A DNA stretch of 64,000 bases from the NCBI GenBank assembly GCA_963663705.1, contig OY760504.1, positions 1,224,063-1,288,062 of the forward strand, given 5' to 3'. Position 1 is the stretch's first letter. Every line of letters starts with the position of its first letter. The position numbers and the translations under genes are program-made. Of the stretch, positions 4,844-41,692 are shown one piece after another. The notes below the pieces were generated by a model that was not told the DNA's origin, searched no databases, and was given only the letters and a program-made list of their open reading frames with translations. Source of the stretch: Armatimonadota bacterium (GTDB taxonomy: Bacteria; Armatimonadota; UBA5829; DTJY01).

Positions 4844-4970
4844 TCATTCAGCTAGCGGCTTTTCCACATCCGATTCCGGATCGAACAATCCTGAATCGAG
4901 TAGCTTCAGGATCAGCCAGATCGACGAGAATGCTATCGCATTCTTGAGAGTATATGCTACTCATTGCGGA

Positions 4971-14328: not shown

Positions 14329-16122
14329 ATGCTACTGCCTACCGCAAAAACACCGCCAAAGCCTGACCTTGCCGACCTGAGCGTACTGGTATACGGCCCA
14401 ACGAAGATCGGAAAGTGCCTCAAGGGTGATACCTGCATTATCGATCCTGTGACAGGGCGGCCACGGACTATCCGCGAGATCGTAAAAACGCGACAGGGGC
14501 CTGTTCATACTCTCGGAGAGGCCGGATGCATATCCTCAGTGGAGCCTTCGGCGTTCGTAGAGAATGAGCCGGAACAGCTATTCAGGCTTACTACTCAGAC
14601 CGGCAGGGTTATCGAGGCTACTGCAAGTCATCCATTCCTGACCAGAAGTGGATGGAGGCCGCTATCTGAACTAAGGGAGTGCGATAGGGTTGCCGTAATA
14701 GCTGAGTACCCACGGCTATTCGGCTGCACACGAACAGACAGTGATCAGCTTACCATACTTGCGTATCTGATTGCCGATGGCTCACTCGGCGGGAACAAAT
14801 CGCCTATCTTCACGAAGTGCGACCCGGAGGTAAGGCTGGACTTCGAATCATCAGTGGAACGTACCGGAGATGAGTGCATTGAGTACGAGAACACAAATGG
14901 CATCACTCATGTCAGGGTGCGTGGCAAACCTGGATTCCAGAACAATGTCATCGCGCTCCTCAGGGAGCAGGGACTGCAAGGACTGCGTGCACCTGATAAG
15001 TTCATCCCGGATTTCGTGTTCGGATTGCGAAGGTCGAAGCTTGCGCTCTTCCTGAACAAACTGTTCTCCTGCGATGGCAGCATGGAGGCAACGGGGAGGG
15101 TCAGCTACAGTTCTACGTCCATCCGAATGGTGCGCCAGGTCCAGCACCTGCTGCTCCGCTTTGGCATCGTGTCACTGCTGCACAACAGGTTTATCGACGG
15201 CGAACTCTACGGGGCAGAGATACTCGTTGCAGGCAAGACCGATGTGCTGAGGTTCATAGATCAGATCGGGTTCACCGGAGAGAAGGGCGTTAAGGCAGAA
15301 AGTGTTCGGGCTGCGCTCTACAACGTGCGGGCAGCAGAGACCCAACTCGATAAGGTAGGCCCTATCCTTTTCGACCGCATCAGGAGCATCGAGCCGACAA
15401 CCATCGAGTCAGTCTACGATCTCACGATCCCTGATACCCACAATTTCATTGCAAACGATTTTGTGGTCCACAACTCAACATGGTGCTCTCATGCCGATGT
15501 CGCGCTCTTTCTCTCGACCGAACCGGGGCTGAACTCCCTTGAGGTGTTCCAGACGCCCATACGATCCTGGGAGGAGCTGCTCGCCGCTTGTGGTGAGATC
15601 GCCGAGGGGAAACACCCGTTCAAGACGGTCATTATCGATACCATTGATAACGCCTTTCGCATGTGCGCCGACTACGTCTGCCGCAAGTTCAAGATCGAGC
15701 ATGAGTCGGATCTGGGCTACGGCAAGGGGTACTCGCTCATCGCAAATGAGTTTCAGCGCGTGCTAAACAAGCTTGCGTTTATGCCGTATGGGCTGTTTCT
15801 GATCTCCCATTCGCAGAACGTGGAGATCGAGACGCGCACGAGCAAGTACACGAAGACTGTGCCCACGCTTCCCGAGAAGGTAAGAAAGCTCGTGCTGGGA
15901 CTCGTGGATATGGTGCTCTACTGTGACATCGAAACAGGTGCAGGCTCGGATGGCAAGGTATCGGCACGCCGCGTCATGCGCACGAAGCCATCGATCTACT
16001 ACGAAGCCGGTGACAGAACCGTGAGGCTCCCGGACACGATTGACCTCGACTATGACAGATTCATCGAAGCATTCAAAACAGGCTTGAATAACAAAATCAC
16101 AAAGGAGACAGCAAGCAAATGA
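14329..16122 (+). CDS. Sak4-like AAA/RecA-fold ATPase interrupted by an intein
   Basis: Extein Walker A GPTKIGK|ST is split by a 353-aa insert. The extein totals about 244 aa. Confidence 0.7.
   Translation: MLLPTAKTPPKPDLADLSVLVYGPTKIGKCLKGDTCIIDPVTGRPRTIREIVKTRQGPVHTLGEAGCISSVEPSAFVENEPEQLFRLTTQTGRVIEATASHPFLTRSGWRPLSELRECDRVAVIAEYPRLFGCTRTDSDQLTILAYLIADGSLGGNKSPIFTKCDPEVRLDFESSVERTGDECIEYENTNGITHVRVRGKPGFQNNVIALLREQGLQGLRAPDKFIPDFVFGLRRSKLALFLNKLFSCDGSMEATGRVSYSSTSIRMVRQVQHLLLRFGIVSLLHNRFIDGELYGAEILVAGKTDVLRFIDQIGFTGEKGVKAESVRAALYNVRAAETQLDKVGPILFDRIRSIEPTTIESVYDLTIPDTHNFIANDFVVHNSTWCSHADVALFLSTEPGLNSLEVFQTPIRSWEELLAACGEIAEGKHPFKTVIIDTIDNAFRMCADYVCRKFKIEHESDLGYGKGYSLIANEFQRVLNKLAFMPYGLFLISHSQNVEIETRTSKYTKTVPTLPEKVRKLVLGLVDMVLYCDIETGAGSDGKVSARRVMRTKPSIYYEAGDRTVRLPDTIDLDYDRFIEAFKTGLNNKITKETASK
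14416..15474 (+). other. intein with LAGLIDADG homing-endonuclease domain inside the ATPase P-loop
   Basis: Block A CLKGDTCII starts right after the Walker A Lys. Block B TASHPF. LAGLIDADG motifs LAYLIADGS and LFLNKLFSCDGS. Terminal VVHN followed by Ser as the +1 residue. Confidence 0.8.
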
Positions 16123-16577: not shown

Positions 16578-17110
16578 TGGCCGACAAGCCGACCATAGTG
16601 GCCGATACGCGTGAGCAGGAGCCTTACGAGTTTCCTCCAAGCCTGGTCAGCCTCACGAAACGCGCTCTTCCGGCCGGGGATTATTCCCTGGCCGGGCTGG
16701 AGCATGAGGTGGCGGTCGAGAGGAAGACTATGGATGACTTCATTCATACGGTCATTCGAGATAGAGACAGGTTCCGCAGGGAACTCAAGATACTGCAAAC
16801 CTATCCCTGCGCCTGTGTTGTAGTCGAGGCTAATCTTGATGATGTGTTCACAGGCGAATATCATTCCGGCGCTCATCCGAACTCAATCCTTGGGGCGACC
16901 CTCTCCATCATTGTCGACTACGGCATTCCAGTCTATTTCTGCTCCAACCGGCAAATAGCCCGCCGGTTTGTTATGGAGTTCTTAATGCGTTACCACCGAA
17001 AGGGCATAGATTCATGCAATGTACAATCCCAAGTAGCACAACCAGTATCAGAGGAGAGGTCGAGCGAATCTTCTTCTCCTCCGCAAACTTCTCGGCAGGA
17101 CGGTTCCTGA
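16574..17110 (+). CDS. ERCC4-type nuclease
   Basis: Motifs IVADTRE, GDY and VERKTMDDF match the ERCC4/XPF nuclease signature. Confidence 0.55.
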   Translation: MMADKPTIVADTREQEPYEFPPSLVSLTKRALPAGDYSLAGLEHEVAVERKTMDDFIHTVIRDRDRFRRELKILQTYPCACVVVEANLDDVFTGEYHSGAHPNSILGATLSIIVDYGIPVYFCSNRQIARRFVMEFLMRYHRKGIDSCNVQSQVAQPVSEERSSESSSPPQTSRQDGS

Positions 17111-19212
17111 CCAAAGGCGGCGCACGCATCCAGTTTGCCGGTAACATCGTCCCGAAAGAACACGAGCCGCTCGTGCTCCACGGCGAGTTCATGAAGCATC
17201 CGAAGTACGGCCAGCAGTTTGAGGCCCGGAGCATGGAGTTCGATCAGAGGCTCGATGCAAATGGACTTGCCAACTACCTTGCGAATAATCCGGAAATCAA
17301 GGGCATCGGGCCGGCGAAAGCCCGGACTATTGCCGAACGCTTCGGGAGCGCCTTTGAGGAGACTCTTATCTATGCGCCCGAGAAGATAGCAGAGGTGGCT
17401 CGTGTGCCGCTATCTGTTATCGAAGACCTGCGCGACCAGTGGACTCAGACATCTAATACCAATGCCGCGATGACGTCTCTTTCCGCATACGGGCTCACCC
17501 ATCATCAGGTGACCACCCTCGTAAAGAAACTCGGCAATAACGCAGTCGGCATCATTCAGCGGGATCCGTATGTGATCGTCCGTGAGATCGAAGGCTTCGG
17601 TTTCAAGAAGGTCGATAAAATTGCCCGGCAAGTAGGTATAGCAAAGGATGATCCGAACCGTATACGTGCAGGCATCATCTACTGCATCGACAATGCTCTC
17701 GATCAGGGCGACTGCTGGGTCGAGTATGAAGATCTGCTCGACCGGGCAAACATGCTCCTTGTCATGGACTGCCTGGACAGTAGGTCACGTATAGAATCGC
17801 AGTTGGATGATCTCATCGATAAGAATACGCTTACCTGCTATGCCGCCGATTGCCGTTTCCTCATAGCGAAGCCCGTGGTCCGGCAGATGGAAGAGGAGCT
17901 TGCGTCGGTCTTTGCAGAAGCCAGAAAGCCAAATCCACATGTGATCAGAAACACCAATTCTACAAATCCAAAGTTGAACACAATGCAGAGGCAGGCAGTG
18001 GAAGCCGCACGCGCGCATAGCATCTCACTCATCTGCGGCGGTGCAGGTTCAGGCAAGACATACACCATCGCCGCGATTACCGATCTCTATGAGGTCAATG
18101 ACCTGAGTGTCGTACTCTGTGCACCCACTGGCAAAGCGGCCAAACGCATGGAAGAATCGACCGGCAGGTCTGCCCAGACGATTCATAGACTGCTCGGATT
18201 CAATGGGAAGACCTACCCTCGGGATGCTGACAACCCCGTGCAAGCTGATGTGTTGATCGTCGACGAAGTCTCGATGGTCGATGTGCCGCTCGCATGGCGG
18301 CTTTTTCAGGCAGTCGACCTGTCGCGCACATCGGTAGTGCTCGTCGGAGATCAAAATCAGTTGCCGCCGGTCGGACCGGGGAATATACTTCGGGATCTCA
18401 TAGACTCGCACACCATCCCGACGACCGTACTTGATGAAGTCGTGCGACAGGCAGGAATCCTGAAGGAGAACAGCATCGCCATACTCAGGGGCGAAGTACC
18501 GAAGACGCCGCAGAAAGATCATGCCGATCACGGCGCATGGTACGTGGTCGATCAGCACAGCAAATCGGAGGACGTTCAGAAGTTCGTTTTGGACTTGTTT
18601 GAGCATACGCTGCCGGAGAAGCTTGGATTCGATATCCTGCGAGATGTACAGGTACTGACGCCGACCCATAAAGGGCCGCTCGGGACGATGGAGATGAACG
18701 CGAAATTGCAGCAGCTAATCCAGTGGAAGCTCTGGGGCAATACGGTCTCGCCCACTCCACCTAACAGACGTCCGAAGCTCTACGAAAACGACAAGGTTAT
18801 CCAGACTCGCAACAACTACGAACTCGGCATCATGAATGGCGCCATGGGAATAGTTCGTTCCATCGGTACCGATGGATCACTGGCGATCGAGTTTGATGGA
18901 GGTCTTGTAGATATTGAGGCCGGTTCCCCTCATAGGAACGATATCCAGCTTGCGTATGCGCTCACGATTCATAAATGCCAGGGTTCGGAGTTCCCCTGTT
19001 CGATAGTGGTGGCGCACAAATCGCATTCATTCATGCACCATCGGAATCTACTTTACACAGGTGTCACCCGTGCGTCGAAGACCGCCATCATCGTCGGTGA
19101 CCGCTGGGGTATCGCGAATTGTGTGAGGCGCATGCAGGTCGATGCACGGAAGACATTTCTATCACTGATGCTGCCGAACCAGGCGTTACAGCCAACCGGA
19201 GGCGATCTGTGA
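17014..19212 (+). CDS. RecD-like SF1 DNA helicase
   Basis: Walker A GGAGSGKTY, Walker B VLIVDEVSMVD, HhH region, C-terminal motif IHKCQGSEF...TRA. The start may be an internal M near 17191. Confidence 0.8.
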   Translation: MQCTIPSSTTSIRGEVERIFFSSANFSAGRFLTKGGARIQFAGNIVPKEHEPLVLHGEFMKHPKYGQQFEARSMEFDQRLDANGLANYLANNPEIKGIGPAKARTIAERFGSAFEETLIYAPEKIAEVARVPLSVIEDLRDQWTQTSNTNAAMTSLSAYGLTHHQVTTLVKKLGNNAVGIIQRDPYVIVREIEGFGFKKVDKIARQVGIAKDDPNRIRAGIIYCIDNALDQGDCWVEYEDLLDRANMLLVMDCLDSRSRIESQLDDLIDKNTLTCYAADCRFLIAKPVVRQMEEELASVFAEARKPNPHVIRNTNSTNPKLNTMQRQAVEAARAHSISLICGGAGSGKTYTIAAITDLYEVNDLSVVLCAPTGKAAKRMEESTGRSAQTIHRLLGFNGKTYPRDADNPVQADVLIVDEVSMVDVPLAWRLFQAVDLSRTSVVLVGDQNQLPPVGPGNILRDLIDSHTIPTTVLDEVVRQAGILKENSIAILRGEVPKTPQKDHADHGAWYVVDQHSKSEDVQKFVLDLFEHTLPEKLGFDILRDVQVLTPTHKGPLGTMEMNAKLQQLIQWKLWGNTVSPTPPNRRPKLYENDKVIQTRNNYELGIMNGAMGIVRSIGTDGSLAIEFDGGLVDIEAGSPHRNDIQLAYALTIHKCQGSEFPCSIVVAHKSHSFMHHRNLLYTGVTRASKTAIIVGDRWGIANCVRRMQVDARKTFLSLMLPNQALQPTGGDL

Positions 19213-23976: not shown

Positions 23977-24204
23977 CTACTCTGCCAGACGCTTCAGGGT
24001 ACGGCCATACTTACGATTGACCTGCGCTAAAGCGTTCTTGAACTTGGTTGCACGTTCCTCATCACGAACCGGCGAAACTATAAGGACGTTGCCGTCGGTG
24101 GATATTTCAAGTGGAGTATCGTCGTTGATCTTGAGTAAATCGAGCACCCCGCGATCGATGACCAATGCCATGCTGTTGCCGTGTTTGGTGAGTTTTTTGA
24201 TCAT
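23977..24204 (-). CDS. AbrB/MazE-type antitoxin-like protein
   Basis: 75 aa; MIKKLTKHGNSMALVIDRGVLDLL matches the SpoVT_AbrB fold. No toxin ORF immediately downstream. Confidence 0.55.
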   Translation of the reverse strand: MIKKLTKHGNSMALVIDRGVLDLLKINDDTPLEISTDGNVLIVSPVRDEERATKFKNALAQVNRKYGRTLKRLAE

Positions 24205-24278: not shown

Positions 24279-25157
24279 TTATAGTCTCTCAATCGCATCT
24301 TCGAGGATGTCGTCCGAGAGGTGTGTGTAGATCTCAGTTGTGGAGATATCCCGGTGGCCGAGCGCACGCTTGACGAGGAGCAGGTCGGATGTGTTTGCGT
24401 AGAGGTGAGTGGCGAAGGTATGGCGGAGTCCGTGCGGCGTGATCTTCTTTGAGATGCCGGCCTTTGCGAGCCAATAGGAAAGTCTCTGTGCTACCTGCCG
24501 ATTGCAAAGCCGGGTGTTGCGAGATGAGACAAAGAGCGCCGTGGTCTCGCTACCTGTGTGATGCCTGCGCTCTTTCAGGTAAGTCCGCAGCAACGTCCGA
24601 AGGGATGACTTGAGAAACTTGATCTGAGGCACTCCGCCCTTGCCCATGATGCGGATGTGCTTGCCGTCAAGGTCGACATCGTCGATATCGAGGTTCACCA
24701 GTTCCGAGAGTCGGATGCCGGTGCCGAGGAAGATCTCGAAGATCACTCTGTCACGACGTGCCAACGGATTCGAGCGGTCGTGCAGTTCCTTGAGCAGTCG
24801 TCTTTTCTCCGGCTCGGTGAGATACTCCGGCGGTGTTCGCGACAACCGTTTCATGGTGACCGAGCGTGCAGGATTGGAAGCAATGATCCCGGCATCCATC
24901 GCCCAGGCGAAGAAGGATTTTATTACCGCTTTCATACGATGCATTGTCGCGGGTGACTTGTGCCGCCCGTCGGGAGTGTTTGCGGCAGTCGGGTCGATCA
25001 GTGCGGCGTCGATTGTAGCTGGCGTTATATCGGCAAGGTCTATGCCTTTCAGAGCCCGCGCAAAGGTATGCAGGTCGCGCATGTAGGCGGAGATGGTATG
25101 CTCCGAGCGACCTTGCGCCCGGAGCCGTGTCTCGAAGTCAGCGACGGCAGAATTCAT
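24279..25157 (-). CDS. tyrosine recombinase (XerC/D or phage integrase family)
   Basis: C-terminal HGLRHTFATHL...LGHRDISTTEIYTHL with catalytic Tyr. SAM-like core-binding N-domain. The ORF track extends to 25316; M at about 25157 is preferred. Confidence 0.8.
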   Translation of the reverse strand: MNSAVADFETRLRAQGRSEHTISAYMRDLHTFARALKGIDLADITPATIDAALIDPTAANTPDGRHKSPATMHRMKAVIKSFFAWAMDAGIIASNPARSVTMKRLSRTPPEYLTEPEKRRLLKELHDRSNPLARRDRVIFEIFLGTGIRLSELVNLDIDDVDLDGKHIRIMGKGGVPQIKFLKSSLRTLLRTYLKERRHHTGSETTALFVSSRNTRLCNRQVAQRLSYWLAKAGISKKITPHGLRHTFATHLYANTSDLLLVKRALGHRDISTTEIYTHLSDDILEDAIERL

Positions 25158-25176
25158 GCTGCCGGAAGTGATGATT

Positions 25177-25563
25177 CTAATCGGTGCCTGTGCTACTGGC
25201 ATCCGGTACCTCCATCGTGTTCGTTGTGCTGTGACCCATGGGCATATCCTTTGGGAAGGGAAGCTTTGTGATATAGCCCTTGCCAAGCGTCCAGACGAGA
25301 AACATGCGGAAGACACGAACCGTTTTCTTTATGGTAGGTTCAGAGCGTTCCTTGCCGCTCGGCAGTTTCAGCAGCGCATCCGACTTCAGGAATCCTGCAA
25401 CATGCGGGATGAGTATCGCTGACAGCTTCTTCTCGGGACCGAAGTAGGCTTCGATCTGTTGTGCATCCTTGTTGTAAGTGTAAAGTGTCCGCTCGCTCTT
25501 CCCTTCAGCATTGAGGTGGCCGAGGTACTCCCGGAGAGCGCCTTGCAGTGTGATATCAGACAT
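25177..25563 (-). CDS. stand-alone integrase SAM-like (core-binding) N-domain protein
   Basis: 128 aa; ALREYLGHLNAEGKSERTLYTYNKDAQQIEAYFG resembles the phage integrase N-terminal SAM-like domain. Confidence 0.5.
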   Translation of the reverse strand: MSDITLQGALREYLGHLNAEGKSERTLYTYNKDAQQIEAYFGPEKKLSAILIPHVAGFLKSDALLKLPSGKERSEPTIKKTVRVFRMFLVWTLGKGYITKLPFPKDMPMGHSTTNTMEVPDASSTGTD

Positions 25564-25655: not shown

Positions 25656-27182
25656 GTGAACAACTTCACAGAAGAACAGCACAAGATCGCACTATCGCTC
25701 AGAGATCCAGTGGTCTGGGGTCAGTCGTATCTCACAAATCGCGACGGCTCTCCCAGAGAATACTGGCCACACCAGGTCGATGACCTTATGTGCGATGACC
25801 GGAACATAATCCACCTGGACGGACGGGATTCCGGGAAGTCGATATCGCTTACGACGGATGCCCTGCACTATGCCTTCACCGTACGCGGAGGTCAGGGGCT
25901 TATCGCCGCCCCTCACCAGGGGCATCTCGATACATTGATCGAGGAGATCGAGTTTCAACTGGACTCCAACCCCGAACTGATGAAGAGCATCGGCATCACG
26001 AAATACGGCAAGCCGAAGATCTACCGGAAGCCCTACTTCCGGCTGGAGTTCACGAACGGCTCGGTGCTCTATTTTCGTCCTGCAGGCGCATACGGAGATG
26101 CATTCCGGTCGCTGCACGTCGAGCGGGTATGGGTGGATGAGGGCGCGTGGCTCACGGAGAAGGCATGGAAGGCACTCAGGCAGTGTCTCAAGGCAGGCGG
26201 CAGGCTCAGGATCTATTCGACGCCGAATGGACTACGGGACACCACCTACTACCGGCTGACCACATCGTCGCAGTTCAAGGTATTTCGCTGGCCGTCGTGG
26301 ATAAACCCTGACTGGAGCGATGAGCGGGAGAGCGAACTCCTTGAGTTTTACGGCGGGCGCGATACGGCAGGCTGGCAGCATGAGGTCGCCGGCGAACACG
26401 GCAAGCCGTCATACGGGGCATTCAGCCTGGAGAACCTGAATATCTGCCGTCAGGAGACATTGGAATATCGGAAGGTCACTGTGCTGGGAGAAGACATATC
26501 TTCCTGCGCTACGGAAGAAGAATCCCACGACCGGCTGGAGATACTCCTGAACCTCATGCCGCAGACTGGAGTGTTCTGGATAGGAGGCGATCTCGGCTAC
26601 ACCAACGACCCAACGGAACTTGTGATCTTCCGGGAGATGGAGGTCGGGGAGAGATCGATCATGACTCTTGCGCTCCGCATACACATGGAGCATGTGTCGT
26701 ATCCGCATATCGCCCAGACGATATCACTCCTGGATCGGTACTATACTCCGGTCGGCATTGGTGTGGACAACGGTGGAAACGGTCTATCGGTCGTGCAGGA
26801 ACTCCTCACACTTGATAAGTACAAACCGCTCCAGCTTGAGGGCCGGCTCAGGGGTTACGACTTCGGCGGGATGACGACGCTCGCCATCCGGGACGGCCGT
26901 GAGATCAGGAAGCGGACAAAGGAACTGATGACGAGCCTTATCAGCGGCGCCCTGCAACGGCGGCAGATCGTCCTTCCGGCAGAAGACTTAGAGATCGAGG
27001 ACCAGTTTACAACGCAAACATACACGCTCTCGAACGGGAACATCATCTACTCGAAGGGGAACGACCACATCGTTGATGCGGTGAGATGCGCCATGCTCGC
27101 ACGTGAACAGGGAACTCTCGACCAGGTGACCGAGGAGACGGTCTGCGTAATGCCGGTACTCACGAAACCGATCTTCCTATGA
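25656..27182 (+). CDS. terminase large subunit
   Basis: ATPase Walker A-like DGRDSGKS, Walker B VWVDEGAW, and a C-terminal nuclease region. Position just before the portal gene. Confidence 0.8.
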   Translation: MNNFTEEQHKIALSLRDPVVWGQSYLTNRDGSPREYWPHQVDDLMCDDRNIIHLDGRDSGKSISLTTDALHYAFTVRGGQGLIAAPHQGHLDTLIEEIEFQLDSNPELMKSIGITKYGKPKIYRKPYFRLEFTNGSVLYFRPAGAYGDAFRSLHVERVWVDEGAWLTEKAWKALRQCLKAGGRLRIYSTPNGLRDTTYYRLTTSSQFKVFRWPSWINPDWSDERESELLEFYGGRDTAGWQHEVAGEHGKPSYGAFSLENLNICRQETLEYRKVTVLGEDISSCATEEESHDRLEILLNLMPQTGVFWIGGDLGYTNDPTELVIFREMEVGERSIMTLALRIHMEHVSYPHIAQTISLLDRYYTPVGIGVDNGGNGLSVVQELLTLDKYKPLQLEGRLRGYDFGGMTTLAIRDGREIRKRTKELMTSLISGALQRRQIVLPAEDLEIEDQFTTQTYTLSNGNIIYSKGNDHIVDAVRCAMLAREQGTLDQVTEETVCVMPVLTKPIFL

Positions 27183-27269
27183 CTTATCATTGCCGATAAA
27201 GTCTACCGCAATATTCGCATGATTTCAACTTTTATTGCCCGCCCGGCATTATTTATCGAGACAAATCGT

Positions 27270-28126
27270 ACTCTCGCGCTGTTAGCGAACGTCACGCGAA
27301 CAAACGCTAATGACGGTTAAGTCGATCTACAAATCATCACGATTTCGCCAGGAGACAGTGGGCTTGGATTTTTTGAATCGGCATCCCAGCATCGAATATG
27401 TGATACTTCCCATATAGCGGCCATCGCCCTCGGCTAGGAGTCCGTATGCTTTGGGGACAGGAGAATTGATGTCGCCAAAATCGATATTGTCATCGCCGCC
27501 ACCTCCAACTTCCCATCTCGATAGGTCATCAGTACATTTACCTACATAGAGATGACCATCAATCCGAGCGATTTGCCTGATGCCGCCATGCTTCAAATCA
27601 AGAATATACTCTTGTGACGGATCGACAAACCTTAGGTACGGTCCCTCTTGTTTGTTTCCTGGATACCAGTACACATCCACTGGAGTATCTCCGCAGCCGT
27701 CTATCGGCGCAATAAGGGTTGTGGAAGGGAAGGACTTTGTCTCTATTCTGATCTGCCTGTCGAACTCAGCAACAAGATGGTGTTTGGCTTGAACCATGAA
27801 CTTCACATGTCCAGATCTATCTGGAAGCTTGATATCGGTCGAAATCCAGTGTGTCATTGCCCAAGCTATTACAACCTGTCCTGCAATCAAGTATAGGCAT
27901 GGAAACACGACTATGGCGATTATGGCGCAGATTGCAAAACGAAGGAAAGGTCTTCGTCGTACAGTTTTAATAGGCTCTTCCACGTGCTTCTCCTAAATCG
28001 AATGATGACTACTTATGTGAGATTGTGGTCACTTATACAACTATAACCTTGTCTCAGTACAGCCGTCAAGGTCTACAGCTAGGACCTCTCGCGCCACTAT
28101 CGAGCGTGGCGGGAACAAACGCTAAT
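27270..28126. repeat. about 41-bp imperfect direct repeats flanking an opposite-strand moron
   Basis: Left copy CTCTCGCGCTGTTAGCGAACGTCACGCGAACAAACGCTAAT (27270-27311). Right copy CTCTCGCGCCACTATCGAGCGTGGCGGGAACAAACGCTAAT (28086-28126). Shared 14-mer GAACAAACGCTAAT. Confidence 0.55.
27327..27983 (-). CDS. membrane-anchored hypothetical protein (moron between terL and portal)
   Basis: 218 aa. N-terminal TM FLRFAICAIIAIVVFPCLYLIAGQVVIAWAM. Opposite strand to the surrounding late genes. Flanked by direct repeats. Confidence 0.5.
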   Translation of the reverse strand: MEEPIKTVRRRPFLRFAICAIIAIVVFPCLYLIAGQVVIAWAMTHWISTDIKLPDRSGHVKFMVQAKHHLVAEFDRQIRIETKSFPSTTLIAPIDGCGDTPVDVYWYPGNKQEGPYLRFVDPSQEYILDLKHGGIRQIARIDGHLYVGKCTDDLSRWEVGGGGDDNIDFGDINSPVPKAYGLLAEGDGRYMGSITYSMLGCRFKKSKPTVSWRNRDDL

Positions 28127-28152
28127 TCCGCTAATGAAGAAGGAGTAACTAC

Positions 28153-29643
28153 TTGAATAACTCAACCGAACAAATGAATCTCGTCGAATCCGAGAACTCT
28201 GCCGACGGCATGGTGCTCACCCCGCTTGCTGCCGCAGCGGCGCTCGCCACTTCTGCGTTCGCAAGCGTCAATGCTTCCGATGCTATCCCTGCAGCATGGG
28301 AAGACCGGGCGCACAAGGCTTGGGAGTATTACACCGAGGAGCCGCTCGTGAAGAATGCCGTCAACTCGTGGCGCACATTTGCAGTGGGCGATGAGATCAA
28401 GATCAAGAGCGATGATGACACGGTAAAGGAGGAAGCGAACTTGCTTGCTGACAGGCTTGGACTGTCCGACTTCGTGAAGGATATGGTCCTCCAGCTTCTG
28501 GTGAAGGGCGATGCAGTCGGGTTCAAGCGGTATACGAAGGACCTCAAAGATATCGAGGAGGTTACCTGCGTCAACCCGGTATCGGTCAAAGTAAAGTATA
28601 CCCAGGGGCAGCTTGTTGAGGTTCGCCAATACCCGGAGGATACGCCAACGGCGGGTGAGGGATTATCACTTCCAGTAGAGCAGACCATCCACCTGAAGTG
28701 GGATGCGCCGGAGTTCTCACAGAGAGGTAACTCGCTTGTCCTGCCTGCATTCCAGTCCATCGAGCTGCTCCGGGATTACCGAAAAGCTGAACAGGCAATT
28801 GCAAAGCGCTGGGCGACACCGTTTAGGCTCATCAAAGTCGGCGGCGCGTTCGGGCAGAAGATGGTTATGCCGGATCAGAAGATGCTCGAGCAGATCAGGG
28901 ATATGGTTGACAAGATGGATATGAAGAGCGGGCTCGTCGTCCCCTTCTACGTGACAGCGGAGACCCACGGCACGGAAGGCCATGTCCTAAACGTCGAGGA
29001 GAAGGTGAAGGAGGTCAAGGAAGATATCGTCGTGGCCCTCGGGCTCTCCCGATCGCTTGTCGCAGGTGACGGCCCGAACTTTGCCACCGCATCGATCAGC
29101 ATGCAGAAGATGATCGTCATGATCCGGGAGATAAAGCATGCCGCGCGTGCGATACTCGATTGGCTCTTTAATGACTGGCTCGAACTCTCAGGACATCAGG
29201 GGAAGAGCATCCAGTATATCTTCAGCGATCTTGATCCCACCGATGCCGTCGATGTGAAGAAACTCTTGATCGAACTCTATGATCGCAAGCTGATCAGCCG
29301 ATCGAGTCTTCAGATCAAGATGGACCTCGATCCGGATATCGAGGAGGCGAACAGAGAAAGCGAAGGTAAGTCCGTTGACCTACTCGATGAGAAGCAAGTC
29401 AAGCCGATAGTCGATATGGTCGTATCCGGCATAATGGGAGTCGAAACTGCACAGGAGATGTTGGGACTCGATCCGGCAAAGAATAAGCCGATGAACGGGG
29501 CGCAGGCTTCGGTATACGCCGGTGAGATATGCGACTCGTGCGGTTACTTCGATGAGGACAGGAACAAATGCGGTGTCACGCAGGGAGATGTCACCTTCGA
29601 CTCCCACGCCTGCAGGTTTATGCAGTATAGGAGAGATAATTGA
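28153..29643 (+). CDS. portal protein (SPP1 gp6-like by position and size)
   Basis: 496 aa between terL and the MuF gene, with an acidic C-terminus. Family inferred from the conserved SPP1-like gene order. Confidence 0.55.
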   Translation: MNNSTEQMNLVESENSADGMVLTPLAAAAALATSAFASVNASDAIPAAWEDRAHKAWEYYTEEPLVKNAVNSWRTFAVGDEIKIKSDDDTVKEEANLLADRLGLSDFVKDMVLQLLVKGDAVGFKRYTKDLKDIEEVTCVNPVSVKVKYTQGQLVEVRQYPEDTPTAGEGLSLPVEQTIHLKWDAPEFSQRGNSLVLPAFQSIELLRDYRKAEQAIAKRWATPFRLIKVGGAFGQKMVMPDQKMLEQIRDMVDKMDMKSGLVVPFYVTAETHGTEGHVLNVEEKVKEVKEDIVVALGLSRSLVAGDGPNFATASISMQKMIVMIREIKHAARAILDWLFNDWLELSGHQGKSIQYIFSDLDPTDAVDVKKLLIELYDRKLISRSSLQIKMDLDPDIEEANRESEGKSVDLLDEKQVKPIVDMVVSGIMGVETAQEMLGLDPAKNKPMNGAQASVYAGEICDSCGYFDEDRNKCGVTQGDVTFDSHACRFMQYRRDN

Positions 29644-32600
29644 AAGCAGGCTCCACGAGTGTGATGTGTGCCATCGCTGATGTCTCGCAGCAGGCGCAGG
29701 CGATCCGCGAGGCAACGGACAAGTCAATCATGGCTCGTGATATGTATACCGAGCAGGTAGTCTCAGAGCTTACCCAGTCGCTCAAGGCGGCACAGGATCA
29801 GGTTCATAAGTCACTGCTCGGATACAAGGACATCGGCTCGCTACCGGACAGCAAGCTCGCGGCAGTAAGCGGCCTTGAGAAGCTAAATGCCAGGATTGCA
29901 GATACCATGAAGGCACTCAGGCGTGACCAGAGTCTGATGTTCCGTCAGGCATCAACTGCATCATTTCGATCTGGTATATACCGAGGGATCGAGGAGTTCG
30001 CCGCAGCCCAGATGCCGTTTTACAAAGATCTGACTCCTGACGGCATAGACAAACTGACGACCTCTGTGTTCACGCTGATAGATACGGATGCGCTCGAATT
30101 CATGGCGAACTACAACCTGGTTCTCGCAGGCGACGTCCATCGTGAGCTTGCCGATGGCATTAAGAAGAGCATACTCTCCGGCATAGCGACCGGCAAGGGC
30201 GTGGAAGGCATCGTCTCCGATATGGGCAAGGTCATCGAGGATAAAGAATCTTTCCGACATGCCGGAAGCAAGGTATTCACAAAAGCACAGTACCGCATGG
30301 AGACGATCGCCCGGACGGAGATCCTGCGTGCGCATAATCAGGGACGGCTCAAGTTCCACGCGCAGGTCGGCGTACAAAGGCTCGAGTGGATGACGATGGC
30401 CGATGAGCGCACCTGTCCGGTCTGCGGAGCACTCGATGGCAAGCAGTTCGATACGGACAAGTTCCCGAACCAGCCGGCACATCCACTATGCAGATGTTCT
30501 TCGCTGGTAGCCTGGCCACTCGTCATCTGCGGTGGTGAACTCGGATCCGTGGCAGCAGACAGCTCACCGTCGTGTATCCTGCCTCTACAGGCGATAGAGC
30601 AGCAGGCCAAACAGAAATCTGACGAAGAGAAGAAACTGAAATACGCATTCGACTCCGGCGAGATAGGCGATCTATCTGCTCTGACGGTGAAACAGCTTCA
30701 GACCATTGCAAAGCAGAACGGCATATCGATAGCACGCACCAAGGCCGACTTCATTAAGCTGCTCGATGCGGCAGAGCCGGGTATTCACCACGGCGATATG
30801 TCGGGGGCCATCCTTATGGCAAAAGTCAAACAGTACAATATAGCGGCACTCCGGAGTAAAGACGATCTAGTGAAGCTTCTTGCAGATAAGCAGGCCGTTA
30901 TCAAACAGGCGAAGGCATTCGAGGAAGCGGCAAAGAAGGCTGCACCCCAGGGTGGACTATCGAACCTTACGATGGTTCAGCTAAAGGAAATGGCGAAGGA
31001 TCAGGGTATATCGCTGAACCTCACGAAAAGCGAAGTCATCGATATGCTTGATTCTCTTGAACCGGGCGTAGATCATTCCGACATTGCCGGTAAAGCACTC
31101 CTTGCCGCTAAGCAGAAGCACGGCATCCCACCGCTCAAGAACAAAGAACAACTCGTAAAAGTCCTGGAAAAGTCCGCTGGCAATCAGATGGCAGAGCAGG
31201 CAAAGCAGCAGGCGCTCGAAGCCGCAAAGCAGGCGGCTATGAATAAGGCAGCGCAGGCGCTCTCGGATGCCACGGCAAAGGTAGTCGTTCCATCGTCCCC
31301 TACCCAATATTTACAGTTTCTGGAGTCGGTGAAGGGAGCGGAAGCAGAACTCGCAAAAGGCACTGGACTACCGCAATCGGTCCTCTGCGAACAGGCGAAG
31401 GATATTGCTCTGAAGAAGAAGCTCTTTGCAGACCAGATATCTGCTCTGAAGGTCGGCGAACTGAAGGAACTGGCGAAGCAGACAAAGGTCACGCATTGGC
31501 AGTGGTCGAACAAGGATGAACTCGTTACAATATTCACCGAAACTGACGCCAATAAGATCGCCGCTGCAAAGGCAGGAATAGAGGCGAAACATGCCAAGTG
31601 GGCGGAGAAGCACCTGAGTGGCAAATCGGGAAAAGCCAAACCAAATGAACAGAAACCTGTCTCCACTCCATCAGCGCCGGAATCGAAGATCACCGGATCC
31701 CCGACCTTTACAAAGAAAGGTTCTGAGTTCGATGCGGCAGATGCGGTATGGGCTGAATCCGGGAAGCCATCCAAATTCAAATATGATGGCAAGGCCAACG
31801 TAGGCGGCGCACACGAGAAGGAGTTCTGGCTCGATGAAAACGGCGAAAAATGGCTTTTCAAACCGGTCGGCAAGTCGGATGATGACTTCATCGCCTATGG
31901 CGAAGAGGCTGCATACAAGATCGGCAGACTGATCGATCCAGACGCGGTCGAGGTGCGAACGGTGATACTTAAGGGCCGGGTCGGTTCCATGCAAAAATGG
32001 AGAACCGGCCTTGCTGAGAAGTACGATTTCTCAAACATGGATGTTACCGATCTCAGTCCTGATGAGGTAGCGCAGGTTCAACGTGAACACGTCCTCGACT
32101 GGTTGATTTCAAACCATGACGGCCACGCTAAACAGTTCCTGCGGGCAAAAGATGGCAAGGTCTACGGTATCGACAAGGGACAGCTGTTCAAGTTCCTGGG
32201 CTCGGACAAGCTCAATGCCGACTACCATCCTAACCAGGTATGCGGAGAACAGGAGCCGTTCTACAACACGGTCTTCCGTGCTGCAAGAGACGGCAATGTC
32301 AAGTTCGACCCATCCGTCACAATGCGCTATATCCGTGAGGTCGAGAAGATAGCGGATGATGATTATCTGGCACTCCTTCGACCATATGTCGAAGGCAGAT
32401 TCGGCGGAGATGACCTCAAGAAGAAGGCGTTTTATGATCTGGCCCTTTCACGTAAGCATAGTCTGCGGGACGACTTCGAGTCGTTCTACGTCGATGTACT
32501 ACACAAGCCCGGTTTTCGGTTTGATGACGCCATACCGGAAATATCGGTTGCTGGACGTATCGGTAAGGCAGAAGAGGAGATTATCCATGATGCCGAGCGT

Positions 32601-34235
32601 CTTGGCTGGCAGGGAAAGTGCCTTCCCATCGATGCAAACGACATTGAGGATCAGAATGCTCTCATATTCACAGAAAAGGTTGGCAAGGGAGAGCGAACCG
32701 TCGTCAAGATGAAACTCCGTCCGGAAGCAGAACCGAAGATCCTTCCATCCTTGAAGAAAGCGGAGAAACAGGCGGTAGTGAAGATTGGAGAAGCTATCCC
32801 TGAGGATGACTTTGCGAATGATATCCTCTCGGCGGTAAAAACAATCAACCACCATGCCAAGGACGGTAACTACAATCAGGGAACGCTCGATAAAGCTATA
32901 AAGCATATGAAGGCCCTTCGTGCGCTTGCCAAGTCGGACGATTCCGACGTACGCCGGATGGCGGAAACATACATCGGCTGGCTGGATAAGGTACAGCAGG
33001 CTGCATCAGGCAGACAGGGCATTGCTGAGAACTTCACACAGTACCTGAAGCAGTATAAACCTGCGGCAAAGAAAGGGTCCGAGGATCTTGGCTACACGGT
33101 CCGAAAATCGAAGGTGCTCCTTACCAAGCGCACAATAAGCAAAGGCGAACTTGCTGTCGAAAATGAAGCCGCTAACCTGACTGACATCTTCCGTGGGAAC
33201 TCAATGCCCGAAGGCGAACAGTACGAAATAGACTTTGGCGATGGTGTGAAGGCCGTCTACCGACCATGGAATGACAAGAACCTGTATGCTCATTCTGGTG
33301 AGTTTGAGATGGTAATACCGGAGAGGCCGGACCCAAAGAGCCTCAACAAGGCGATGGAACATATGGAAAAGATCGGGATTAAGGCGAACGTCGCCAGTCC
33401 AGAGGATGCCGAGATAATGTATCTTCACAAGCAGTCATATGCCACCAAGGTCGATAGTAACGTGGAGTACAAGAAGATGATGGCAGGCTTGGATCAGAGG
33501 AATGCGACGGGGACAGAGCGGGTTCAGGCCATGCGGGCGTTCTGGGAGAAACGGCTCGGTGTGACTGACATCACAAAGATGCCGGGATACGATCCGGTCG
33601 GCGAATACCAGATGGGTTTCAAAGACCGTTCGATCAAGGGCGGTTATCGGTACCAGTATCGCTTCGATCTATCGGATGCTGACATGGAAAAACAGATGGC
33701 TGGATACAGCCTGTATCATAACATCACGAACGGAAACTCGGTGAGCGGATTCCTAGATACAGCACTTGGGGACAACGGCGCGATGATCAGCACGGTTGAG
33801 AAGATACGCGCCGGTGTGCCGCCCGGAGGGATGTCCCCCGAAGCTGATATGCGAAGCGGTGGAGCGAGCTACATCTTCACACGCATCAAGAAATCGCCAG
33901 TGTCGGGAGGCGACAGGAGCACGGGTCTCTACTTCAAGAAACGGCTTCTGCGTCGAATGGATGCGATCAGCTATGACCATGATGCCTATGGCAAGGTGAT
34001 AGATAATTACGTCGTGGAACATCGTGGATTCGACCCGAAGGAGTGGAAACGGTTCTCAAAGAACGGCAGCAACGAGACGATCCTCAAATACTCGGTCACT
34101 CTGCTCGACAATTTGGAGAATATCGTCGTCGGCACGGAGAGTGAGCGTAAGACTGTGCTCGGTGTGTTCAAGAAGCATGGGGTATCCGTCCTTCCTGATG
34201 GTCGGAAGATAGAAGAAATAGTATTAAAGAGGTGA
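29640..34235 (+). CDS. MuF/SPP1-gp7 head-morphogenesis protein with long polymorphic C-terminal extension (HeH repeats, PI3/PI4-kinase-like domain, unknown region)
   Basis: N-terminal MuF domain with CPVCGALDGKQFD...PLCRC. Three tandem HeH/Rho_N-like repeats (LTVKQLQTIAKQNGISIARTKADFIKLL...). Kinase-like LFKPVGKSDDDF, ISNHDGHAKQ and GIDKGQ. About 500-aa C-terminus with no assignment. Confidence 0.7.
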   Translation: MKAGSTSVMCAIADVSQQAQAIREATDKSIMARDMYTEQVVSELTQSLKAAQDQVHKSLLGYKDIGSLPDSKLAAVSGLEKLNARIADTMKALRRDQSLMFRQASTASFRSGIYRGIEEFAAAQMPFYKDLTPDGIDKLTTSVFTLIDTDALEFMANYNLVLAGDVHRELADGIKKSILSGIATGKGVEGIVSDMGKVIEDKESFRHAGSKVFTKAQYRMETIARTEILRAHNQGRLKFHAQVGVQRLEWMTMADERTCPVCGALDGKQFDTDKFPNQPAHPLCRCSSLVAWPLVICGGELGSVAADSSPSCILPLQAIEQQAKQKSDEEKKLKYAFDSGEIGDLSALTVKQLQTIAKQNGISIARTKADFIKLLDAAEPGIHHGDMSGAILMAKVKQYNIAALRSKDDLVKLLADKQAVIKQAKAFEEAAKKAAPQGGLSNLTMVQLKEMAKDQGISLNLTKSEVIDMLDSLEPGVDHSDIAGKALLAAKQKHGIPPLKNKEQLVKVLEKSAGNQMAEQAKQQALEAAKQAAMNKAAQALSDATAKVVVPSSPTQYLQFLESVKGAEAELAKGTGLPQSVLCEQAKDIALKKKLFADQISALKVGELKELAKQTKVTHWQWSNKDELVTIFTETDANKIAAAKAGIEAKHAKWAEKHLSGKSGKAKPNEQKPVSTPSAPESKITGSPTFTKKGSEFDAADAVWAESGKPSKFKYDGKANVGGAHEKEFWLDENGEKWLFKPVGKSDDDFIAYGEEAAYKIGRLIDPDAVEVRTVILKGRVGSMQKWRTGLAEKYDFSNMDVTDLSPDEVAQVQREHVLDWLISNHDGHAKQFLRAKDGKVYGIDKGQLFKFLGSDKLNADYHPNQVCGEQEPFYNTVFRAARDGNVKFDPSVTMRYIREVEKIADDDYLALLRPYVEGRFGGDDLKKKAFYDLALSRKHSLRDDFESFYVDVLHKPGFRFDDAIPEISVAGRIGKAEEEIIHDAERLGWQGKCLPIDANDIEDQNALIFTEKVGKGERTVVKMKLRPEAEPKILPSLKKAEKQAVVKIGEAIPEDDFANDILSAVKTINHHAKDGNYNQGTLDKAIKHMKALRALAKSDDSDVRRMAETYIGWLDKVQQAASGRQGIAENFTQYLKQYKPAAKKGSEDLGYTVRKSKVLLTKRTISKGELAVENEAANLTDIFRGNSMPEGEQYEIDFGDGVKAVYRPWNDKNLYAHSGEFEMVIPERPDPKSLNKAMEHMEKIGIKANVASPEDAEIMYLHKQSYATKVDSNVEYKKMMAGLDQRNATGTERVQAMRAFWEKRLGVTDITKMPGYDPVGEYQMGFKDRSIKGGYRYQYRFDLSDADMEKQMAGYSLYHNITNGNSVSGFLDTALGDNGAMISTVEKIRAGVPPGGMSPEADMRSGGASYIFTRIKKSPVSGGDRSTGLYFKKRLLRRMDAISYDHDAYGKVIDNYVVEHRGFDPKEWKRFSKNGSNETILKYSVTLLDNLENIVVGTESERKTVLGVFKKHGVSVLPDGRKIEEIVLKR

Positions 34236-35222: not shown

Positions 35223-37643
35223 TTGCGAGGTAAATCATACGTGCAACTTTTTGCCACCGACTACGATAGACTGGCATTCCTTCTCGAGACAGACGCATCT
35301 CTTGCCCTGGGTGAACTTATCGCTCAGGGTGAGGAGCCTGACTCCGAGGAAGTGCCGGAAGATAAACGACCCAAATACATAACGAACTACATCGGCTCGA
35401 AGCAGAAGCTCGTCGACTGGATATGGAAGCATACCCCGGAAGGTGTCGCGTCCGTACTGGATGCATTCTCCGGCTCGGCGGTCGTGGCATATATGTACAA
35501 GACCAAGGGGCTCTCTGTATATGCCAACGACCGCCTCCACTACGCCTACCATGCCGCTCGCGCCATAGTCGAAAACGACAGCGTTCGGATATCGGAAGAT
35601 GAACTCGCTGCTCTCCTTGCGAAAAGCCCAAAGGCCGGGACCTTTGTCCAAGATAACTTTAAGGGGCTTTTCTTCGCAAACGGAGTGCACGGCGTCATCG
35701 ATAATATTCGGGCAAACGCAGACAGTCTTTCCGGGTTCAAGAAAGATATCGCGCTCTTTGCACTCGGAAAGACCTGCATGTCCGGCAAGGGTGGGTTCGG
35801 TCACTTCTCATCGTCCACCGATTACGGGAAGCGCCAGGACACGCCTGAGGAGTTCGAAGAGCGATTCACGGATAATGTCACCCGCATCAACGCTCTCGTC
35901 TTCGATAACGGCAAGGAATGCAAGGCATATGCCAAGGATATCAACGACATACTCCCGGGGTCTAAAGTCGACCTTGCATACTTCGATCCGCCTTATGCAA
36001 CCGAGTTCTCGACCACAAATTACGAGAAGTCCTACCACTTCATAGAAGGGCTCATGACATACTGGGACGGCCTCGAGATAAACCAGGACTCGAAGACCCA
36101 TCACTATGCGACGGACCATAAAACAGTGACCAAGGCTAACGCGAGTGAGTTCTTCGGTACTTTCCTTGCGAACGCCAATCACATACCAAATTGGCTGATC
36201 TCATACCGCGACCATGCCTACCCGAACGAGGGTGAGATGAAAGATATTATCTCGGCAAGCGGCATGCAGTCCAGAATGCAGTCCCAGCAGCATAAGTACA
36301 ACATCTCATCGAAGCATTCGGAGAACTCGACCGCAATGGAGCGGCTCTTCATCTGCTCAAAGTCATCTGCGTCTACCCAGGCGGATAGCGCGAATGAAGA
36401 GCCGCGCCCTGTTACTAAGATTCTATCGGCTGCATCACTCGCGGCAAACTGCCACACATCGATACCGGTCGAAGTAAGGCTGGGCGCAAATGATTCGATG
36501 TCTGCTCATGCCATCGATTTGAATACGAATGCCGGCGATCCACAGTTCAGCCTTATCATGTGCCGGGTCGGGACTAACAGAAACGGCGACCACTTCCTGC
36601 CGGAAGAGTTGTCTACCCGGTACACAACAGCAATCAACAAGAAGATCGACCTCAAACACTCCCAGGACCTGACTGACATAGTCGGCGGCATCGTGGGCGC
36701 TGAATACGTCGATGATGAGACAGGCGGCAGAGTCGAATGCGTGGGCGAGCTATACACAGCGGACACCCCCACCGCTGCGCTCGCCTACAAGCTCATGAAA
36801 CGCGGCATCATCTCTCAGGTCTCTATGGAGTGCGATTACGAGGCTGGTGAATGTTCGATCTGCGGGAAGACCGTAGCTAACAAGAACGACTACTGCGTTC
36901 ACCTCAGAAAGTTCAAAGGTGCAGAGTACCAGGGCAAACCGGTCTACGAGATACTGCACGGCGTAACGTTCACCGGCCTCGGCCTCCTCGATCGGAAGGG
37001 GGCAGACGAGAATGCACGCATCACACAGGTAGCAAGCGAACAGATAAACACAGGAGGCAACAAGTTGGAAGACGATAAGAAAGATATAGATGACGGCGCA
37101 GATGCCGCAAAGAAGAAGGCGCCGGATGGTGGTGGCAATAGTAATCCTTCTGCGCCCCCTATCCCGCCGGCAGATGATAAGGCCCGAATCAAGGAACTCG
37201 AGTCGGAGAATAAGACACTGAAGCAGCAGGTCATCGATCTTGAAAAGCAGGTACAGGAACTCGAAGCCGCGAGCCAGGCCGCCGCTAACAAGACGCGCGC
37301 TCAGAAACTAATCCAGAAGCTCGAGAAGTCGGGGATGTCCTTCGGCTCGGATGAAGACCGGGAGAAGGAGATGAGCAGGCTATCGGAACTCTCAGACGAT
37401 GCTTTCTCTGCAACGGAAGCCGCTTACGACAGGGCGATACAGCCGAAATCGGAGTGTCCCTGTACCGATAAATCCGGCGAAAAGGAAGAGAAGAACGCTG
37501 CATCTGCTTCCATGCGATCAAACGCCAATGTTCGGCCCGTAGATGTCGACGATAAGAAGCTTTCTCTCGAAGACAAGCTCAAGCAGGGATTCATGACGGC
37601 GTACCGGGAGCGTGTCGGCGCAGTCACTGGTGAAAAGAATTAG
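35223..37643 (+). CDS. Dam-like N6-adenine DNA methyltransferase fused to prohead protease/scaffold-like C-terminal region
   Basis: N-terminal FSGSA (motif I) and DPPY (motif IV) in alpha-class spacing. The middle region resembles a prohead protease (GDHF..., SMECDYE). The C-terminus is a coiled-coil scaffold (KELESENKTLKQQVIDLEKQVQELEAA). The start is possibly a GTG at 35241 with a GAGG Shine-Dalgarno. Confidence 0.55.
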   Translation: MRGKSYVQLFATDYDRLAFLLETDASLALGELIAQGEEPDSEEVPEDKRPKYITNYIGSKQKLVDWIWKHTPEGVASVLDAFSGSAVVAYMYKTKGLSVYANDRLHYAYHAARAIVENDSVRISEDELAALLAKSPKAGTFVQDNFKGLFFANGVHGVIDNIRANADSLSGFKKDIALFALGKTCMSGKGGFGHFSSSTDYGKRQDTPEEFEERFTDNVTRINALVFDNGKECKAYAKDINDILPGSKVDLAYFDPPYATEFSTTNYEKSYHFIEGLMTYWDGLEINQDSKTHHYATDHKTVTKANASEFFGTFLANANHIPNWLISYRDHAYPNEGEMKDIISASGMQSRMQSQQHKYNISSKHSENSTAMERLFICSKSSASTQADSANEEPRPVTKILSAASLAANCHTSIPVEVRLGANDSMSAHAIDLNTNAGDPQFSLIMCRVGTNRNGDHFLPEELSTRYTTAINKKIDLKHSQDLTDIVGGIVGAEYVDDETGGRVECVGELYTADTPTAALAYKLMKRGIISQVSMECDYEAGECSICGKTVANKNDYCVHLRKFKGAEYQGKPVYEILHGVTFTGLGLLDRKGADENARITQVASEQINTGGNKLEDDKKDIDDGADAAKKKAPDGGGNSNPSAPPIPPADDKARIKELESENKTLKQQVIDLEKQVQELEAASQAAANKTRAQKLIQKLEKSGMSFGSDEDREKEMSRLSELSDDAFSATEAAYDRAIQPKSECPCTDKSGEKEEKNAASASMRSNANVRPVDVDDKKLSLEDKLKQGFMTAYRERVGAVTGEKN

Positions 37644-41452: not shown

Positions 41453-41692
41453 ATGAAACTCAAGAACCTGCTCTTTCAGCCGCTCACGCTCAACATAGCC
41501 CTCGACAGTAAAGGGCTGCACCTGAACGCACGGGAGGCTACGGATATCCTCGAAAGCCGCATATCGGATGAAATATTGAAGGCTGAGGTGCACGGCATAG
41601 TGTCGCTCATGAACGCGGTGGACGAAGGGATAACGAGCCCGCTCGGCAGAGGCAAGGATTCCTCGACTCAAAAGAAAGTGAGCACCAAATGA
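41453..41692 (+). CDS. hypothetical protein
   Basis: 79 aa, coupled to the sheath gene. Confidence 0.3.
   Translation: MKLKNLLFQPLTLNIALDSKGLHLNAREATDILESRISDEILKAEVHGIVSLMNAVDEGITSPLGRGKDSSTQKKVSTK

Follow-up and report, generated by a model that had tools for sequence, protein, structure and literature searches.

How did a single minus-strand gene come to lie between the terminase and portal genes of a prophage, and what are the near-identical repeats on either side of it? We address these questions for a 64,000-nucleotide (nt) stretch of an Armatimonadota bacterium genome (GCA_963663705.1, contig OY760504.1, positions 1,224,063 to 1,288,062), which we will term the window and in whose coordinates all positions are given. 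The window is a prophage and is myovirus-like. The gap between its large terminase gene (terL) and its portal gene is exactly 27183-28152 and holds an open reading frame (ORF) of 218 amino acids on the minus strand (27327-27983, GTG start), which lies opposite to the plus-strand terL and portal genes, as a first-pass annotation of this DNA had described. The ORF stands between two copies of a 41-nt element, E_L on the terL side and E_R on the portal side. We consider it likely that a foreign cassette was inserted here, that an element already present in the portal leader was duplicated in the process, and that the insertion was not site-specific.

The two copies are distinctive within the window. 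The pattern CTCTCGCGC-N16-GNGAACAAACGCTAAT has two exact matches, at 27271-27311 (E_L, plus strand, 92 nt after the terL stop) and 28086-28126 (E_R, plus strand, 27 nt before the portal start), and none in shuffled sequence. (The first-pass annotation had noticed both blocks, with the first one starting a nucleotide too early, at 27270.) Exact occurrences of the 14-mer GAACAAACGCTAAT are limited to the same two places, and an nhmmer profile of the element finds no third copy in the window. By local alignment, the duplication is exactly 41 bp, without extension, and a repeat search likewise returns a 41-nt family at 80% identity (33 of 41 positions identical). All eight mismatches fall inside the central 18 nt (P = 4.6e-4 under random placement), and the outer 9 + 14 nt are identical. 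The arrangement is not an assembly artefact, because an independent Logan assembly (L002) has it in identical form.

To see what the junction looks like in relatives, we fetched 170 related loci via portal and terL, and both genes could be placed in 144 of them. Over these 144 junctions, the gap measures between 75 and 4825 bp, with 68 junctions above 400 bp. Because the gap varies from 75 bp to 4.8 kb, the junction is a cargo hotspot in this lineage. In the close clade (terL at least 79% identical), a search with the nhmmer profile found the element in 28 distinct junctions, which comprise 20 empty and 8 filled sites. Every one of the 20 empty sites has exactly one element, within a leader of 116-205 bp, and this element ends 17-39 nt ahead of the portal start. 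The spacing of 27 nt between the end of E_R and the portal start is within this range and is the same as in the empty site L061, and the distance of E_L from the terL stop (+92) compares with +89 and +90 for the single element in the empty sites L061 and L093. Furthermore, in L061 and L093 the left flank of the single element is the sequence that precedes E_L (…TATCGAGAC.AA.CGTA), and its right flank is the sequence that follows E_R (…C.GC.AAT.A..AAGGAGT.ACTACTTGAATAAC). Thus, the junction in the window corresponds to an empty site plus 815 bp, that is, a 774-bp cassette and a second element. The idea in the first-pass annotation that insert-free relatives might show one repeat copy at the empty site was borne out in 20 of 20 cases. 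In 6 of the 8 filled clade sites, the cargo comes directly after the terL stop, and the whole leader is present once, on the portal side. The 218-amino-acid ORF itself is absent from the junctions of all 144 relatives.

The remainder of the original leader is also recognizable. Its terL-proximal part (27183-27270, plus strand) aligns collinearly with the leaders of the empty sites L061, L093, and L091, and includes a single ATTGCCGATAA motif (27189-27199, plus strand) and a TATCGAG box (27254-27260, plus strand). The three empty-site leaders have ATTGCCGATAA-like motifs up to three times and a GGCTCATCTATCG box ahead of the hairpin element. More broadly, ATTGCCGATAA/ATTGCCGTTGT motifs occur just 3' of the terL stop, up to three times, in many relatives (L061, L091, L092, L151, and L160), with one intact copy in the window; they are missing from the empty-site relatives L005, L064, and L065. 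These motifs could be putative sites for a regulator or a packaging protein.

A related question is what the duplicated element is. It is about 41 nt long and reads TCGCGC-loop-GCGCGA, then ACAAACGCTAA. Over the 28 alleles, the six outer stem pairs (TCGCGC/GCGCGA) are near-invariant, changes in the three inner pairs are limited to T.G/C-G or G.T/A-T, the loop varies freely, and the tail GAACA(A/G)NCGCTAA is conserved. (Stem pairs were counted with an anchored script, as MAFFT put a 2-nt length difference at the 5' end and not in the loop.) The stem of E_R (TCGCGCCAC/GTGGCGGGA) has 8 of its 9 positions paired and a minimum free energy of -14.4 kcal/mol. The stem of E_L is weakened in its 3' arm, where GTGGC has become GTCAC, so that five contiguous pairs are left; its 48-nt minimum free energy of -9.1 kcal/mol is among the three weakest of a set that spans -8.7 to -20.8. 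Candidate roles for the element are an RNA hairpin in the portal 5' leader, a protein-binding inverted repeat, or a packaging signal. We rejected an intrinsic terminator, since a T-run is missing after both copies, and prediction for the plus strand gives no intrinsic terminator in the terL-portal gap. We also rejected an element that recurs ahead of other operons, as the window has no further copy. The first-pass annotation had offered duplicated promoter or terminator elements as an alternative explanation of the repeats: it was partly right, in that a pre-existing, conserved element of the portal 5' leader was duplicated. In distant relatives the leader differs but is analogous, with CCTCCGGTAGATAAC, a hairpin GGCGCGAATGTCGCGCC, and then the ribosome-binding site (RBS).

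The inserted cassette (27312-28085, minus strand, 774 bp) is bounded exactly by E_L and E_R and consists of a promoter, an RBS, and the ORF. The predicted sigma-70-like promoter, TTGACG-18-TATAGT (28040-28069, minus strand), matches the consensus at 10 of 12 positions, and the RBS AGGAGA (27989-27994, minus strand) lies 5 nt ahead of the GTG start. No intrinsic-terminator-like site was found downstream of the ORF on the minus strand. The closest homologue of the encoded protein (P0002, 68% identical) is on the 1160-bp contig L001 (ena:ERZ27297509:k141_1588211), and its ATG matches the start position of our ORF. This homologue is preceded by TTGACG-18-TATAAT at the same distance from the start as in the window, with a diverged spacer and diverged surroundings. 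Nucleotide homology between the window and L001 is limited to 27327-27993 plus the promoter hexamers, which implies that the mobile unit is essentially promoter-to-stop. We considered whether the repeats are part of the cassette and rejected this, because the L001 homologue has neither repeat. (Positions 1-306 of L001 hold a divergent neighbour gene fragment with Ser/Thr protein kinase motifs, HRDVKPANI...DFG, and the contig is too short for judging gene context.)

By its sequence characteristics, the cassette gene is foreign: its GC content is low (0.43-0.48 for the cassette vs 0.55-0.58 in the terL and portal flanks), its predicted promoter recurs in conserved form at an unrelated locus, and none of the 144 relatives has the gene. 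The foreign GC content, the predicted promoter of its own, and the absence from relatives also support the view in the first-pass annotation that this is a moron acquisition. The source of the cassette was probably a bacterial chromosome. The ratio of nonsynonymous to synonymous substitution rates (dN/dS) between the ORF and its 68%-identical homologue is 0.17, which indicates purifying selection and hence a real gene.

If the repeats arose during insertion, do they tell us how the cassette got in? We screened 60 distinct filled junctions for direct repeats on their left and right sides and found flanking duplications above shuffled controls in only four. The first is the window, with 41 bp around the gene for the 218-amino-acid anchored protein. 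The second is L084, with about 77 bp that include a box upstream of the element, around a minus-strand transglutaminase-like gene. The other two are L029 and L041, with 137 and 117 bp, respectively, that take in a promoter-like box and both hairpins, around a minus-strand HicA/HicB pair; in L029 the duplication also takes in the RBS of the portal gene and its first ~20 nt. (In these Bryobacterales relatives the whole portal leader is doubled around the HicA/HicB toxin-antitoxin genes, at 4988-5124 and 5810-5945 of L029 and at 4956-5071 and 5749-5865 of L041, and L029 has a truncated portal pseudo-start left on the terL side.) As L029 and L041 share their cargo, they probably go back to a single event, which leaves three independent duplications. 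In L084, the conserved tail of the terL-proximal copy is changed. As the terL-proximal copies of the window and of L084 both depart from near-invariant positions, they fit the idea that the left copy is a relic.

The cassette encodes no transposase, has only one ORF of at least 100 amino acids, and has no terminal inverted repeats. Together with the varied lengths and endpoints of the duplications, this points to illegitimate or short-homology recombination. The repeats are therefore not a footprint of a specific mechanism such as target-site duplication or att recombination. The first-pass annotation had read them as a footprint of acquisition, and this stands insofar as they were duplicated at insertion, but not as a diagnostic signature, given that lengths range over 41, 77, and 117-137 bp and most filled sites have no such repeats.

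We propose that the 774-bp cassette was inserted directly 3' of the leader element and that the insertion was duplicative, so that E_L would have stayed on the terL side and E_R would have come to lie beside the portal RBS. Most likely, the duplication arose by illegitimate or short-homology recombination between two genome copies, and no dedicated recombinase or transposase would be behind it. E_R was kept probably because the portal gene depends on having the element just ahead of it; in L029 this need would reach to an intact 5' end of the portal gene. E_L would then be a relic whose stem has decayed. The cassette gene would use its own promoter, in the antisense direction relative to the late transcripts, and is presumably on in the lysogen.

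Several observations weigh against this account. First, no donor locus for the cassette was found, and the sole close homologue is on a contig of 1160 bp. Second, the homologues of the protein that could be placed are chromosomal and lie among housekeeping genes (fumarase, Band_7, ApbE, DAC, and LexA), and there are none in phage records; this suggests that the prophage copy is a captured chromosomal gene. Third, the structure of the element favours none of its candidate roles: there is no true two-sided covariation in the stem pairs of the 28 alleles, the folding energies are alike on both strands, and there is no Rfam match in 27100-28250. Finally, E_R is the most divergent allele of its length class, and its 5' CAC is common to the alleles of L062, L063, L095, and L106, so it is possible that E_R was imported with the cassette from another phage.

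This last observation leads to the strongest alternative, a Campbell-type capture, in which a circle with the cargo and one element (e.g., excised from a related prophage) recombined with the resident element. Such a capture would make E_L and E_R hybrids of different allelic origin and would make the unit of element, cargo, and element exchangeable among related prophages. The distribution of the mismatches agrees with this, as all eight are in the lineage-variable centre and the outer 9 + 14 nt are identical. Also, the nearest relatives have TGTT...AACGT alleles, which E_L resembles, whereas E_R starts with CAC as in L062, L063, L095, and L106; related prophages do co-reside (3 in GCA_054604175.1 and 4 in OZ252029.1); and the prophage's PD-(D/E)XK nuclease could belong to a recombination module. 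Nevertheless, we regard this alternative as unlikely. Among alleles of the same length, the best match of E_R is E_L, at 33 of 41 positions, which fits duplication in situ and later divergence. Nowhere else did we find this cargo between elements, and terL and portal share their nearest relatives, with no sign of mosaicism at the junction. Moreover, the first unit of element, cargo, and element would still require illegitimate recombination.

A more far-reaching version of this idea is that the leader element serves as a homology handle, such that circles of element and cargo excise and re-integrate in the leaders of related prophages, and that the 218-amino-acid protein is a new type of exclusion factor at the level of the envelope. 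We find this combination quite improbable. If true, the terL-portal junction would be a recombinase-independent, integron-like platform for cassette exchange over several phyla.

A dedicated site-specific system is more improbable still. It could be a transposase that duplicates its target site, or the tyrosine recombinase upstream of terL acting on att or integron-like sites. The edges of the cassette fall exactly at the ends of the elements, the element can form a hairpin, and a tyrosine recombinase with a small SAM-like ORF is found beside terL in all close relatives that we examined. In addition, the left junction falls right after ...CTAAT/...GTAAG in both the window and L084. However, 6 of the 8 filled clade sites have one element and cargo that abuts the terL stop, and the duplications of 41, 77, and 117-137 bp, with that of L029 reaching into the portal coding sequence, are not of one size. 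The cassette's lack of a transposase and of terminal inverted repeats argues in the same direction, as does the fixed spacing between element and portal in all 20 empty sites, which is what is expected of a leader feature, and the element is found nowhere else in the window. The least probable explanation is that the two copies are independent regulatory elements of the backbone (e.g., one that stabilises or terminates the 3' end of terL, and one that serves as portal leader) that are unrelated to the insertion: conservation is perfect in the outer parts of the two copies, and the element does follow terL as well as precede portal, but there is a single copy in 20 of 20 distinct empty-site relatives, E_L has lost part of the near-invariant GTGGCGCGA arm and the left copy in L084 has lost the conserved tail, and there is neither a T-run after either copy nor a predicted terminator.

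We return to the insertion of a foreign cassette with duplication of the leader element, and ask what the inserted gene might do. The protein has a single hydrophobic helix, which is N-terminal (residues 12-44, nt 27852-27950), is preceded by RRR, and has a Kyte-Doolittle 19-residue maximum of 2.81; this is in line with the single N-terminal transmembrane anchor that was predicted in the first-pass annotation. An AlphaFold2 model from a 65-sequence alignment (predicted local distance difference test score, pLDDT, of 90.1; predicted template modelling score, pTM, of 0.84) has this signal-anchor helix at 12-44 followed by about 13 beta strands, which make up an all-beta C-terminal domain. (The model from the single sequence had a pLDDT of 38 and was unusable.) Across the family, 61 of 65 members have an N-terminal hydrophobic segment after net positive charge, and in 58 the segment is single. 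The model and the charge pattern predict a bitopic protein, anchored N-in/C-out, whose all-beta domain is extracytoplasmic. The AWA/M motif (residues 40-43) is a candidate site for signal peptidase.

The family proved to be larger than it first appeared: a word-indexed homologue search returned only 2-5 proteins, and an exhaustive HMMER search was needed, which gave 115 cluster representatives at E<=1e-3, mostly of 140-290 amino acids. Except for isolated Pfam hits, the family has no significant profile match in Pfam, NCBIfam, PADLOC, or PDB (best PDB E-value 0.24). The ORF and three homologues have no PADLOC matches at E<=0.1, the ORF has no match in PHROGs, Pfam, or phage records, and Foldseek finds nothing significant for the AlphaFold2 model in PDB or BFVD.

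The cargo of the same hotspot in relatives offers moderate, indirect support for a gene that protects the lysogen. It comprises 74 unrelated ORF clusters, and two thirds of these lie on the minus strand. The defence types in it are AbiEi/AbiEii, Fic/SoFic, PDC-S01, PDC-S04, PDC-S24, HicAB, and a C5 methylase, with PDC-S01 (AAA_14 + DUF4143) the commonest cargo; other cargo includes Phd/YefM, ankyrin, IS200, and rve. Because the cargo of relatives at this hotspot is rich in defence genes, we tentatively suggest, by analogy, that the protein may act in superinfection exclusion or defence at the level of the envelope, although we would not call this probable. The rest of the probability goes to some other benefit for the lysogen or to neutral cargo.

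The surroundings of the junction are those of a tailed prophage, on a contig of 3.78 Mb. The large terminase gene terL (25656-27182, plus strand; PHROG 2, E=1e-28; weak Terminase_6N/6C matches) is 66-92% identical to terL of the relatives that have one, and the portal gene (28153-29643, plus strand; PHROG 2739, E=1e-62) is 67-89% identical over 81 loci. The portal RBS, which we read from the sequence as AAGGAGT (28140-28146, plus strand), is kept in relatives as AAGGAG/GGAGG ahead of a TTG or ATG start. A large serine recombinase (5378-7015, minus strand) is at the left end of the prophage, followed by the PD-(D/E)XK nuclease (13315-14328), an AAA_24 ATPase of the replication module (14329-16122, plus strand) that is interrupted by a LAGLIDADG intein (Intein_splicing 2.5e-18, LAGLIDADG_3 1.6e-14), and a RecD2-like helicase (17014-19212). 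Between the replication module and the tyrosine recombinase is a 75-amino-acid ORF (23977-24204, minus strand) that by eye resembles AbrB/MazE-type antitoxins (MIKKLTKHGNSMALVIDRGVLDLL...), with no Pfam matches at E<=0.01. The XerD-like tyrosine recombinase (24279-25316, minus strand), whose possible roles are dimer resolution or inversion, and the small ORF next to it (together 24279-25563, minus strand) are directly upstream of terL and divergent from it, and have the same position in L084 and L090-L092. The small ORF encodes ~125-129 amino acids, with a weakly SAM-like N-terminal domain in relatives.

Downstream of portal is a MuF fusion protein of 1531 amino acids (29640-34235, plus strand). 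Its N-terminal Phage_Mu_F domain is followed by SAP/Rho_N-like repeat modules and then by a C-terminal region of ~900 amino acids with no Pfam match, and the protein has about 1525-1531 amino acids in close relatives. Within the structural module is an 806-amino-acid Dam-like methylase fusion (35223-37643, plus strand) with an N-terminal D12-class N6-adenine DNA methyltransferase domain (2.7e-22). The tail sheath (41689-43215), tape measure (44532-47462), baseplate J (52308-53717), and DUF4815 (57233-60778) proteins complete this part of the prophage.

The lineage is distant from cultured phages, whose closest terL is at most 27% identical, and an Armatimonadota metagenome-assembled genome (MAG) holds the nearest relatives of the window's terL (88% identical). 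Its terL and portal proteins have 65-92% amino-acid identity among genomes that are labelled as many phyla (loci L003-L172). These hosts include isolate genomes of Desulfosarcina and Syntrophus; closed MAG chromosomes of Bryobacterales, Nitrospira, Zixibacteria, and Vicinamibacterales; and also Armatimonadota MAGs and even archaeal-labelled bins. As mentioned above for OZ252029.1 and GCA_054604175.1, a genome can have several copies of the prophage. Such conservation of terL and portal across phyla is unusual for a tailed prophage, and some of the phylum labels may be binning errors.

Overall, the insertion is an ordinary accessory-gene (moron) event at a hotspot, of a kind that is already known, and it would rise above the ordinary only if the protein is an exclusion or defence factor. 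Still, it is a comparatively documented case of a prophage gaining a minimal promoter-plus-gene unit, probably from a bacterial chromosome, and it illustrates that direct repeats on both sides of a gene need not be the signature of a mobile-element enzyme but can simply be a regulatory leader that was duplicated. It also defines a terL-portal hotspot, in an uncultured prophage lineage of many bacterial phyla, that could be mined for new defence genes, and it draws attention to a family of anchored beta-domain proteins that has no annotation and counts about 115 sequence clusters; their fold is predicted with confidence and has no match in the searched PDB and BFVD libraries.

How does this locus compare with known systems? 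Like the target-site duplications of transposons or the attC sites of integrons, an inserted gene is enclosed here by direct repeats, and the repeated element can form a hairpin. Unlike transposons, the cassette has no transposase or terminal inverted repeats, and the length of the repeat varies between events. Unlike transposon or integron sites, the repeat pre-exists, once per empty site, and most hotspot cargo has no flanking repeats; and unlike in integrons, 6 of 8 filled clade sites have one element only.

Some prophages encode membrane-anchored superinfection-exclusion proteins, such as SieA of P22, Imm and Sp of T4, the lactococcal Sie2009, and Ltp of Streptococcus. The window's protein is similar in that it is a small prophage protein with a predicted N-terminal anchor, a predicted extracytoplasmic domain, and a predicted promoter of its own. 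It differs in that it has no sequence or fold similarity to these proteins (in PHROGs, Pfam, phage records, or BFVD) and in that its family is mostly chromosomal.

A closer parallel is with the morons of phages (Juhala et al., 2000; Cumby et al., 2012; as cited in bioRxiv 10.1101/2024.10.15.618418). As in morons, a single autonomous gene with its own predicted promoter lies between genes that are adjacent in relatives, is on the strand opposite to the late operon, and deviates in base composition. In contrast to morons, no terminator of its own was detected in the window's cassette, and, in contrast to the classical description, its insertion duplicated 41 bp of the recipient's portal leader.

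Finally, accessory and defence hotspots have been described in P2-like phages and P4 satellites (Rousset et al., 2022, PMC9122126), and the old/tin hotspot of P2 adjoins the portal gene (10.1101/2024.10.15.618418). The phage lineage of the window is different (terL at most 27% identical to cultured phage), its hotspot is between terL and portal, and its ORF matches no known defence family. What the two have in common is that conserved flanking genes enclose highly variable cargo that is rich in anti-phage systems.

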